Shown piece by piece: positions 40,331 through 41,281 of a DNA stretch of 64,000 bases. The translations under genes and the position numbers were made by a program. Source of the stretch: a virus. Position 1 is the stretch's first letter, and each line of letters starts with the position of its first letter. The stretch lies in the UHGV virus genome UHGV-0057186; one strand, written 5' to 3'. The notes beneath the pieces are model-generated. The model searched no databases. It was given only the letters and a program-made list of their open reading frames with translations, and was not told the origin of the DNA.

Positions 40331-40407
40331 TTGGCCAGGGTGAAAGGATTCTAACCTTTAACCTGCGGTTTAGAGGACCGCTACTCTATACAATTGAGTT
40401 ACACCCC
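40331..40407 (-). tRNA. tRNA-Arg (anticodon UCU)
   Basis: Hand-folded: acceptor CGGGGTG/CACCCTG, anticodon stem GCGGT/ACCGC loop CCTCTAA, T-arm AAAGG-TTAGAAT-CCTTT, encoded CCA. Confidence 0.7.
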
Positions 40408-40533
40408 GTAATTAGTTCACAGCAATACCTACTCCAACAATCAAGATGTCTTCACACGAAATTAAGAGAAGAGTGATCAGTTTAACCCCTATAATCGCGT
40501 CAAGTGATATTAATGTGACAACTGTCACAAGTT

Positions 40534-40608
40534 TGGCGGACGTGATAGGATTCGAACCTATAACAAATCGCTTAACAGGCGATCGCTCTGCCATTGAGCT
40601 ACACATCC
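40534..40608 (-). tRNA. tRNA-Asn (anticodon GUU)
   Basis: Acceptor GGATGTG/CACGTCC, D-arm GCTC-AATGGCA-GAGC, anticodon loop CTGTTAA, T-arm ATAGG-TTCGAAT-CCTAT, CCA encoded. Confidence 0.7.
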
Positions 40609-40612
40609 AAAT

Positions 40613-40699
40613 TGGTGGGGAGTGATGGAGTCGAACCACCCGAGTCGCAATGACAATGGATTTACAGTCCACACCGCTACCTCTACGGGATAACTCCCC
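40613..40699 (-). tRNA. tRNA-Tyr (anticodon GUA), class II with long variable arm
   Basis: Acceptor GGGGAGT/ACTCCCC perfect, anticodon loop CTGTAAA, T-arm GGTGG-TTCGACT-CCATC, CCA encoded. Confidence 0.65.
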
Positions 40700-40708
40700 A
40701 AATTAATT

Positions 40709-40783
40709 TGGTGGCCCTGGGTGGAATTGAACCACCATCTGGCGATTATGAGTCGCTTGCTTGAACCTTCCAGCTACAGGGCC
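40709..40783 (-). tRNA. tRNA with CAU anticodon (Ile2-lysidine type or Met)
   Basis: Acceptor GGCCCTG/CAGGGCC, anticodon loop CTCATAA, T-arm GGTGG-TTCAATT-CCACC, CCA encoded. Confidence 0.7.
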
Positions 40784-40784
40784 T

Positions 40785-40860
40785 TGGTGCTGATTGACGG
40801 AATCGAACCGCCGACCTTCTCATTACAAGTGAGTTGCTCTACCTACTGAGCTAAATCAGC
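40785..40860 (-). tRNA. tRNA-Thr (anticodon UGU)
   Basis: Acceptor GCTGATT/AATCAGC, D-arm GCTC-AGTAGGTA-GAGC, anticodon loop CTTGTAA, T-arm GGCGG-TTCGATT-CCGTC. Confidence 0.75.
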
Positions 40861-40865
40861 AAAAC

Positions 40866-40955
40866 TGGCGGAGGCGATAGGATTTGAACCTATGAGTCGC
40901 CGGAGCGACTGCCGGTTTTCAAGACCGGTGCATTAAACCACTCTGCCACGCCTCC
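40866..40955 (-). tRNA. tRNA-Ser (anticodon UGA), class II
   Basis: Acceptor GGAGGCG/CGCCTCC, anticodon stem CCGGT/ACCGG loop CTTGAAA, long variable arm, T-arm ATAGG-TTCAAAT-CCTAT. Confidence 0.75.
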
Positions 40956-40957
40956 AG

Positions 40958-41031
40958 TCTCCATACAAGGATTTGAACCTTGGACCTCCTGATCCCAAAT
41001 CAGGCGCTCTACCAAACTGAGCTACACGGAG
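40958..41031 (-). tRNA. tRNA-Pro (anticodon UGG)
   Basis: Acceptor CTCCGTG/TATGGAG, D-arm AGCTCAGTTTGGTAGAGC, anticodon loop TTTGGGA, T-arm CAAGG-TTCAAAT-CCTTG; abuts tRNA-Ser with 2-nt spacer. Confidence 0.7.
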
Positions 41032-41041
41032 TAAATTAAAT

Positions 41042-41115
41042 TGGAGCGGATAATGAGAATCGAACTCACATCATCAGATTGGAAGTCTGAGGTAATACCA
41101 TTATACGATATCCGC
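41042..41115 (-). tRNA. tRNA-Gly (anticodon UCC)
   Basis: Acceptor GCGGATA/TATCCGC, anticodon stem TCAGA/TCTGA loop CTTCCAA, T-arm GTGAG-TTCGATT-CTCAT. Confidence 0.75.
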
Positions 41116-41120
41116 AAATT

Positions 41121-41207
41121 TGGTGCGAGAAGTGGGACTCGAACCCACAAGGAAATCATTCCGCAGCATTTTAAGTGCTGTGCCTTTACCAATTTGACCA
41201 TTCTCGC
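41121..41207 (-). tRNA. tRNA-Leu (anticodon UAA), class II
   Basis: Acceptor GCGAGAA/TTCTCGC, anticodon stem CAGCA/TGCTG loop CTTAAAA, T-arm GTGGG-TTCGAGT-CCCAC. Confidence 0.75.
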
Positions 41208-41208
41208 G

Positions 41209-41281
41209 CTGGGAATAAAGGACTCGAACCTTTGCATCCTGGAATCAAAATCCAGTGCCTTACCAACTTGGCTAATTCCCA
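41209..41281 (-). tRNA. tRNA-Gln (anticodon UUG)
   Basis: Acceptor TGGGAAT/ATTCCCA, anticodon stem CTGGA/TCCAG loop TTTTGAT, T-arm AAAGG-TTCGAGT-CCTTT; abuts tRNA-Leu with 1-nt spacer. Confidence 0.75.

Follow-up and report, generated by a model that had tools for sequence, protein, structure and literature searches.

A Tequatrovirus-like cluster of ten tRNA genes, including tRNA-Tyr and tRNA-Asn, in the virus genome UHGV-0057186

A cluster of transfer RNA (tRNA) genes was analyzed in a stretch of 64,000 nucleotides from the virus genome UHGV-0057186, which is referred to here as the window. ARAGORN, run over the whole 64-kb window, called exactly ten tRNA genes, all on the minus strand between positions 40332 and 41281, and the same ten genes exceeded the gathering score of the Rfam tRNA family RF00005. 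Nine of them scored 59-73 bits (E = 5e-14 to 2.7e-10), with tRNA-Tyr barely over the threshold (30.2 bits vs 29, E = 0.028). In the direction of transcription the genes encode Gln(UUG), Leu(UAA), Gly(UCC), Pro(UGG), Ser(UGA), Thr(UGU), a tRNA with the anticodon CAU, Tyr(GUA), Asn(GUU) and Arg(UCU) (Table 1). A first-pass annotation of this DNA had proposed ten minus-strand tRNAs with this order and these anticodons, and had named the Tyr and Asn calls as its test; both programs recovered these two genes with the claimed anticodons GUA and GUU, and the proposed set stands in full.

The genes are closely packed, with tight junctions between Gln and Leu (0-1 nt), Pro and Ser (1-2 nt) and Thr and the CAU tRNA (1 nt), the first two of which agree with the tight pairs described in the first-pass annotation. 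The remaining tRNA junctions measure 4-10 nt, with the exception of a 125-nt gap (40409-40533) before Arg. The CCA end is encoded in eight of the ten genes and is missing from Gln and Pro, the upstream partners in two of the tight pairs. Classical work on T4 described dimeric precursors for Gln-Leu, Pro-Ser and Thr-Ile, their processing by RNase P and the addition of CCA, and because of the sequence identity this work applies to the shared genes. Three entries of the open reading frame (ORF) track (40412..40672, 41022..41282 and 41041..41289) fall within the tRNA genes and the intervening spacers, and none of the annotated relatives compared has a coding sequence at these places. On these two grounds the entries are best read as artefacts, as had been suspected, and can be dropped.

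Table 1. Features of the tRNA cluster and its surroundings, listed in the direction of transcription.
Feature	Position	Strand	Evidence and remarks
Candidate MotA-type middle promoter (TTTGCTTTA, 12 nt, TATTAT)	41351..41377	-	Regular-expression match to the T4 middle-promoter consensus
tRNA-Gln (UUG)	41208..41281	-	ARAGORN, Rfam 67.4 bits; no encoded CCA; abuts tRNA-Leu
tRNA-Leu (UAA)	41121..41207	-	ARAGORN, Rfam; 100% identical to T4
tRNA-Gly (UCC)	41042..41115	-	ARAGORN, Rfam; 100% identical to T4
tRNA-Pro (UGG)	40957..41031	-	ARAGORN, Rfam; 100% identical to T4; no encoded CCA; 1-2 nt from tRNA-Ser
tRNA-Ser (UGA), class II	40866..40955	-	ARAGORN, Rfam; 100% identical to T4 over 87 nt
tRNA-Thr (UGU)	40785..40860	-	ARAGORN, Rfam 72.9 bits; 96% identical to T4
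CAU-anticodon tRNA, T2-type allele	40709..40783	-	ARAGORN, Rfam
tRNA-Tyr (GUA), class II	40613..40699	-	ARAGORN, Rfam 30.2 bits
tRNA-Asn (GUU), T2-type allele, C31-G39 pair	40534..40608	-	ARAGORN, Rfam 72.6 bits
Preferred SegB recognition sequence (27 bp, reconstructed), tRNA-Asn 3' end	40532..40558	-	Exact match to GGTTCGAATCCTATCACGTCCGCCAAA, also in T2
125-nt spacer, equivalent to the Aplg8-type Asn-His spacer	40409..40533	-	95% identical to the Aplg8 spacer
tRNA-Arg (UCU), third allele (Arg-prime)	40332..40408	-	ARAGORN, Rfam 59.3 bits; C33, U19/A56
184-amino-acid ORF	39756..40310	-	PHROG 5032; Pfam MUG113/T5orf172 (GIY-YIG-related)
rnaD (T4 species 2 stable RNA)	39664..39781	-	98.3% identical to T4
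rnaC (T4 species 1 stable RNA)	39519..39657	-	98.6% identical to T4
Candidate intrinsic terminator closing the RNA gene cluster	39445..39468	-	10-bp stem with 7 G-C pairs, then a T run; just after rnaC

Each half of the window is ~96-97% identical to many genomes of Tequatrovirus (T4-like phages) over 95-99% of the length. As in Tequatrovirus, the cluster has the trna.x/ipI/57B genes on one side and rnaD-rnaC/e.8 on the other, with everything on a single strand, and its flanks align to T4, T2, T6 and Aplg8 at 87-97%. The core series Gln-Leu-Gly-Pro-Ser-Thr-CAU is present, its first six genes being 89-100% identical to those of T4, and the 1.5 kb around the cluster matched 838 phage records, with Escherichia phage LF82-9 as the best match. 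The locus is already known; hundreds of genomes carry its annotation, experiments on it have been published for T2L, T6 and T5, and the identical ten-tRNA set was listed for four Shigella phages in a 2024 paper (PMC11993411). The genes, their alleles, their distribution and their usage ratios were determined here, and for expression, SegB cleavage and a role in defence we draw on the published experiments with T6, T5 and T2L.

T4 (AF158101) is arranged as Gln-Leu-Gly-Pro-Ser-Thr-Ile-segB-Arg-rnaD-rnaC at the same genomic position, with the same order of the first six tRNAs and rnaD/rnaC 98% identical to those of the window. However, T4 carries segB, is without Tyr and Asn as well as a 171-amino-acid ORF that lies upstream of Gln in the window, and has other alleles of Ile(CAU) and Arg(UCU) (61% and ~54% identical). 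The T4 Ile and Arg genes gave no blastn match to the window, and the window genes are therefore different alleles, as these identities confirm. The first-pass annotation had matched its first seven tRNAs and Arg to the eight tRNAs of T4, which is correct for anticodons and order but not for the CAU and Arg genes themselves. T2/T2L (MH751506; EMBL AJ880101) shares the segB-free state and is arranged as Gln-Leu-Gly-Pro-Ser-trna.1 ORF-Met(CAU)-Tyr-Asn-Arg, with a Met(CAU)-Tyr-Asn block 98.8% identical to that of the window. It differs in that the trna.1 ORF replaces Thr, the Asn-Arg spacer is absent, the Arg allele is another one (~60% identical to the window gene) and a different ORF lies downstream. 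The arrangement in T6 is Gln-Leu-Gly-Thr-Met-Tyr-segB-Arg, without Pro, Ser and Asn. The first-pass annotation had recommended alignment with related phages, and comparison of the tRNA regions of T2, T6 and Aplg8 placed the Met(CAU)-Tyr-Asn block in common with T2. Each classical T-even phage carries a different tRNA subset, T6 being without Pro, Ser and Asn and T2 without Thr; the annotated tRNA-Thr of T6 (MH550421, locus coordinates 2648-2722) was not called by ARAGORN.

Phages of the Aplg8/RB5 type (NC_054902) encode eleven tRNAs, consisting of the first nine of the window, the same spacer, and then His-Arg and rnaD-rnaC. Aplg8 is 95.7% identical to the window from the spacer to beyond Gln (40418-42299), with Tyr and CAU genes at 100% and Asn at 97%, but has tRNA-His(GUG), a T2-type Arg and ~360 nt after the spacer, where the window has a distinct tRNA-Arg allele, termed Arg-prime here, and a T5orf172/MUG113 ORF. 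LF82-9 (PV660452), the only relative of the ten-tRNA group inspected gene by gene, matches the window in all ten tRNAs and their order, in the 125-nt spacer, in the cassette of Arg-prime and the 184-amino-acid ORF, and in rnaD/rnaC downstream. It is 97.5% identical over 40100-41600 and 76/77 identical in tRNA-Arg, and it differs by point changes only; its tRNA-Asn is of the Mosigvirus type (stem GTTGA/TCAAT) and its Arg has A73, whereas the window has a T2-type Asn and Arg G73. Compared by annotated gene names rather than by order, REP2/REP3, 236Ecol005PP, sutha, UFV-AREG1, TB004 and BCH953P2 carry Tyr and a ten-name tRNA set in those records that are annotated. The phage teqskov has the same cassette, but with a gapped match and fewer annotated tRNAs.

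The difference from T4 is explained by the homing endonuclease SegB. The tRNA regions of T2L, RB1 and RB3 have been sequenced and contain no segB (Brok-Volchanskaya et al. 2008, PMC2330249). According to the same work, all T2L tRNA genes are cleaved by SegB at their 3' ends, a 27-bp sequence within tRNA-Asn being strongly preferred, and upon co-infection of T4 and T2L segB homes into the T2L region, which almost completely excludes a ~1250-bp T2L segment with Met, Tyr, Asn and Arg (PMC2330249). We reconstructed the 27-mer from the published description (a GGTTCRANTCC core, with G6, A16, G18, A26 and A27 as the differences from the Ser site; PMC2330249), and GGTTCGAATCCTATCACGTCCGCCAAA is intact at the 3' end of the tRNA-Asn gene in the window, as it is in T2. 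No SegB homologue was found in the window, the best tblastn match with T4 SegB having E = 1.2. Because the 27-mer is intact and the window holds no SegB homologue, the locus reads as a segB-free T2L/RB-type allele that is predicted to be SegB-sensitive. The Met-Tyr-Asn-Arg region of this phage would be expected to be overwritten when it infects a cell together with T4 or T6.

When T4 is crossed with T2L, the Met(CAU)-Tyr-Asn block is replaced through homing (PMC2330249), and the absence of this block from T4 is accordingly a loss. T4 lost Tyr and Asn to a homing endonuclease; the phage of the window did not gain them. The first-pass annotation had described both genes as extra relative to T4, which is right in that T4 is without them and that they lie between the CAU tRNA and Arg, but it reversed the history. 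The Tyr-Asn segment was found at 80% coverage or more in 387 phage records and full-length segB in 126, which makes the ten-tRNA form the commoner state in the genus and T4 the exception.

The individual genes differ in how far they depart from their relatives. The tRNA-Gln gene is 89% identical to that of T4, and all 8 differences fall in the anticodon arm with stem pairing kept. The CAU tRNA is 100% identical to the T2 and Aplg8 genes and only 61% to T4 tRNA-Ile. Compared to E. coli, it is 76% identical to ileX vs 60% to metT, and its anticodon arm at positions 28-42 (GCGACUCAUAAUCGC) is the same as that of ileX. This sequence likeness suggests that it is most likely a tRNA-Ile2, which would carry lysidine and read AUA, like the unrelated T4 allele. 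The tRNA-Tyr gene is 100% identical to that of Aplg8, 98.9% to T2, 98% to T6, 82% to T5 and 67% to E. coli tyrT; its variable arm and T arm are the same as those of T5, and the variable arm is 2 nt longer than that of the host. When aligned with the tRNA-Tyr of T6, T5 and E. coli, six of the 20 pairs of its cloverleaf showed double compensatory changes. The tRNA-Asn gene, with the anticodon arm ATCGC CTGTTAA GCGAT, is 98.7% identical to that of T2, and double compensatory changes were present at 13 of 21 pairs in an alignment of five sequences including other phages and E. coli.

The tRNA-Arg is part of a separate piece of the mosaic. Arg-prime is ~54% identical to T4 Arg and ~60% to the Arg of T2 and Aplg8, and the T2-type Arg that follows Asn or His elsewhere was not found in the window. 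Its allele family comprises Gaprivervirus (VR26, VR20), a Mosigvirus record (AV110) and Gelderlandvirus (S16). The positions U33 and G19-C56 are near-universal in tRNAs. Arg-prime has the anticodon loop CCUCUAA with C33, as do VR26, LF82-9 and AV110, whereas VR20 and S16 have U33; the U19/A56 combination is also present in the Arg of VR20 and S16, and compensatory stem changes occur among the C33 carriers. Through A56 the T-loop DNA motif becomes GGTTAGAATCC, such that the GGTTC core recognized by SegB is changed to GGTTA. A literature search on C33 in phage tRNAs gave nothing relevant.

These departures from near-universal positions at C33 and A56, together with the low Rfam score of tRNA-Tyr, could indicate that the two genes are decayed pseudogenes, and the tRNA-Tyr of T6 has been called relatively unstable (PMC13096335). 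We regard decay as very improbable and rejected it on the basis of covariation and the T6 data. The T6 tRNA-Tyr, 98% identical to that of the window, has been seen on northern blots, and it rescues infection (PMC13096335). The stems of Arg-prime carry compensatory changes between the window and AV110 with C33 retained, A56 is always paired with U19 across the family, and the gene scores 59.3 bits.

Arg-prime belongs to a cassette of 628 bp (39782-40409) that also holds residues 1-176 of the 184-amino-acid ORF. Homology of the Aplg8 type stops at 40418 and T4 homology resumes at 39788, and the cassette stands in place of His, Arg and ~360 nt of Aplg8-type phages. Residues 1-176 of the ORF cover the whole of PHROG 5032 and are 95% identical to VR26 gp145, and its remaining 8 codons and stop fall inside the 5' end of rnaD; the ORF also has weaker matches to PHROGs that carry the annotation endonuclease or homing endonuclease. 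At the nucleotide level the cassette is 95% identical to Gaprivervirus VR26, 91-94% to VR7 and ESCO10 and ~80% to AV110 (the Mosigvirus record) and two others, whereas in 11 records (Tequatroviruses and LF82-9) the identity is 99.1-99.8%. The only unusual feature of the locus is this C33 tRNA-Arg with its linked T5orf172/MUG113 ORF, and not Tyr or Asn. By analogy with SegB, the cassette might be a second mobile module made of an endonuclease and a tRNA, in which Arg-prime would be a cleavage-immune DNA allele or a variant that escapes anticodon-loop nucleases; we consider this quite unlikely.

Codon and amino-acid usage was compared between 69 long ORFs of the window and 34 long ORFs from one 50-kb region of E. 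coli K-12. Among the 20 amino acids the largest phage/host excess was found for Tyr (1.82x), Asn (1.70x) and Lys (1.69x). The codons read by the eight T4-like tRNAs all end in A and are all enriched in the phage, by 1.4-8.4x (AGA 8.4x, AUA 6.5x, UCA 3.9x, GGA 3.8x, ACA 3.4x, UUA 3.1x, CAA 1.6x and CCA 1.4x). Of the 14 plus-strand ORFs, 12 lie in a block at 46.9-63.5 kb matching baseplate, tail-fibre and neck genes. In the plus-strand set Tyr makes up 4.8% and Asn 7.1% of residues and Lys only 5.1%, which supports a role in supply. The suggestion in the first-pass annotation that the added tRNAs tune translation to phage usage thus holds up, Tyr and Asn being the amino acids most over-used relative to the E. 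coli sample.

Its second suggestion, that phage tRNAs replace host tRNAs depleted by nucleases, is upheld by published work in which host tRNA-Tyr and tRNA-Asn are cleaved and phage copies give rescue (PMC13096335, PMC12409363). Host tRNA-Tyr is cleaved by Septu and retron-Eco7, and the tRNA-Tyr of T6, itself seen by northern blot, counteracts Septu and rescues infection when over-expressed or amplified (PMC13096335). Deletion of the tRNA-rich region made T6 more sensitive to Septu, and T4, which is without tRNA-Tyr, could not escape it (PMC13096335). The tRNA-Tyr of T5 resists retron-Eco7 by means of a distinctive variable loop, according to work cited in PMC13096335. The variable arm of T6 tRNA-Tyr is identical to that of the window. 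For Asn, the PARIS nuclease AriB cuts E. coli tRNA-Asn as a secondary target at U36AAUC|C41, the exchange U39->A abolishes AriB cleavage of tRNA-Lys, and T5 tRNA-Asn helps to rescue phages restricted by PARIS (PMC12409363). At position 39 the tRNA-Asn of the window has G39 (UAAG), as does that of T5, whereas U39 (UAAU) is found in E. coli and in the Mosigvirus-type allele; the window tRNA-Asn may thus resist AriB. Outside the T arm and the anticodon loop, the T5 tRNA-Asn has little sequence in common with that of the window. The phage of the window is known from its sequence and, unlike the T6 and T5 systems, has neither segB to amplify the locus nor tRNA-Lys.

The two Asn alleles found among the relatives differ at this site. 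The Mosigvirus-type tRNA-Asn (LF82-9 locus 2936-3010; PhAPEC2 locus 2431-2505) reads U36AAUCA41, which is the preferred AriB context reported for tRNA-Lys and tRNA-Thr, and the T2-type tRNA-Asn of the window reads UAAGCG. The two alleles may therefore differ in sensitivity to PARIS.

In all likelihood, the locus is the Tequatrovirus tRNA operon in its common segB-free T2L/RB form, with Met(CAU)-Tyr-Asn where T4 has Ile-segB, and its products have roles both in supply and as spare tRNAs. During infection the phage tRNAs would supplement the host pool, eight of them reading the A-ending codons of the AT-rich phage and the Tyr and Asn tRNAs serving the two amino acids whose usage exceeds that of the host most, and the Tyr and Asn copies would act as spares when Septu or retron-Eco7 destroys host tRNA-Tyr or AriB destroys host tRNA-Asn. 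Both roles probably operate and neither is essential, since T4 lacks both genes. Several points weigh against this interpretation. The host baseline consists of 34 ORF proxies from a single 50-kb region that stands in for the whole genome, and Lys is over-used overall as much as Asn, yet no tRNA-Lys is encoded. E. coli has one anticodon each for Tyr and Asn with several gene copies, so that, unlike the other eight, these two do not serve rare codons. The function of the tRNAs in this phage is argued from sequence and relatives, with expression, processing and aminoacylation predicted. The tRNA region has been called non-essential (PMC2330249), and because of this and because T4 grows well without both genes, any benefit of Tyr and Asn would be conditional. 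Finally, T6 tRNA-Tyr is still cut by Septu and protects only when amplified or over-expressed (PMC13096335), so that a single copy of tRNA-Tyr may protect little.

The alternatives place the weight on one cause. If the ten tRNAs only match the tRNA pool to AT-rich codon and amino-acid demand, with any effect on defence incidental, then the top rank of Tyr and Asn among the 20 amino acids, the enrichment of the codons read by the other eight, and an excess that is greatest in the plus-strand, mostly structural ORFs, where Lys without a phage tRNA is near the host level, are all expected. However, supply alone does not account for the addition of tRNA-His in Aplg8 when His is under-used by the phage (0.65x), for the greater Septu sensitivity of the T6 tRNA-region deletion (PMC13096335), for the G39 of tRNA-Asn at the position where U39->A abolishes AriB cleavage of tRNA-Lys (PMC12409363), or for the success of T4 without Tyr and Asn, and we find it possible but doubtful as the whole explanation. 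Conversely, Tyr and Asn may be kept mainly as replacements or decoys against Septu/retron PtuAB, PARIS AriB and possibly other nucleases of GUN anticodons, which we judge unlikely as the main cause. This would fit the published work (PMC13096335, PMC12409363, PMC11555353), the T5/T6 variable arm of the window tRNA-Tyr, the UAAG in tRNA-Asn in place of the AriB motif UAAU, and the encoding of a further AriB target, Thr(UGU), with G40 vs C40 at the E. coli cleavage site. Yet Septu cuts T6 tRNA-Tyr like that of the host so that amplification is needed (PMC13096335), tRNA-Lys as the main target of AriB and PrrC is not encoded, the resistance of tRNA-Asn to AriB is predicted from its sequence, and the usage excess alone could account for retention.

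It is also conceivable, though improbable, that the tRNAs are passengers of homing endonucleases and that the content of the cluster mostly reflects the last block copied at the ends of tRNA genes by endonuclease-initiated recombination, single tRNAs being under little selection. The mosaic structure with breakpoints at the ends of tRNA genes, the differences between close relatives in the Arg gene (three unrelated alleles) and in the CAU gene (two alleles), the absence of Thr from T2 and of Pro, Ser and Asn from T6, the cutting of every T2L tRNA gene by SegB at its 3' end (PMC2330249), and the travel of Arg-prime with a GIY-YIG-related ORF all point in this direction. However, the Tyr-Asn pair is 95-100% conserved in most records that carry it, compensatory changes keep the stems across distant alleles, and a benefit has been measured in T6 (PMC13096335).

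The ten tRNAs, one small ORF, rnaD and rnaC are co-oriented and end at a single strong terminator, the only terminator-like site on the minus strand in the scanned interval 39300-42000. Co-transcription from Gln to rnaC is plausible, probably as one or a few long precursors. These possibly start at the MotA-type promoter candidate ~70 nt upstream of tRNA-Gln, inside a block 96% identical to T4; its assignment is a consensus match, which weighs as a further caution on the operon model. Host enzymes would cut the precursors into mature tRNAs, and Gln and Pro would need CCA addition because none is encoded. Two other signals were found near the stable RNAs. A late-promoter motif, TATAAATA, lies after the terminator at 39438-39431 (consensus match only), and a sigma-70-like match (TTGAAA, 17 nt, TATAAT, 11/12) is present at 39876-39904 (-) in the 3' part of the 184-amino-acid ORF, ~95 nt upstream of rnaD, and could give rnaD and rnaC their own transcript. 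In addition, rnaC contains a tRNA-like T arm (CCGGGTTCGAATCCCGG).

A permissive Rfam search over 39380-40560, which takes in the spacer, rnaC and rnaD, returned only tRNA-Arg and a chance-level match to isrK (E = 0.93); accordingly, Rfam gave no family matching rnaC or rnaD and nothing for the spacer. The spacer is not proposed to hold a structured RNA, as its fold was no better than that of shuffled sequences (z = -0.99). The spacer holds the palindrome TGTGA-N6-TCACA at 40514-40529, which we take to match the CRP half-site consensus; it occurs once in the window vs 0.07 expected, and 7 of 100 shuffles had one. It also contains a hydrophobic reading frame of ~30 codons from a TTG start, with no ATG and no obvious ribosome-binding site, which is unannotated in relatives. 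At the other edge of the cluster, the 171-amino-acid ORF (41368-41883, minus strand) lies immediately upstream of tRNA-Gln and matches PHROG 2290, with no Pfam match. It is present in T2 (RB32ORF134c homologue) and Mosigvirus (RB69ORF151c homologue) and absent from T4 and T6, a further insertion/deletion difference.

For this window, the finding amounts to annotating a well-known locus correctly, and by itself it matters little. For the genus, the Tyr-Asn form is ~3x commoner than the segB form in the phage collection, and T4 is not the reference state for the cluster. Finally, the tRNA-Tyr and tRNA-Asn of the window resemble tRNAs that counter Septu, retron-Eco7 and PARIS, which is relevant to host-range prediction for therapy phages of this genus.

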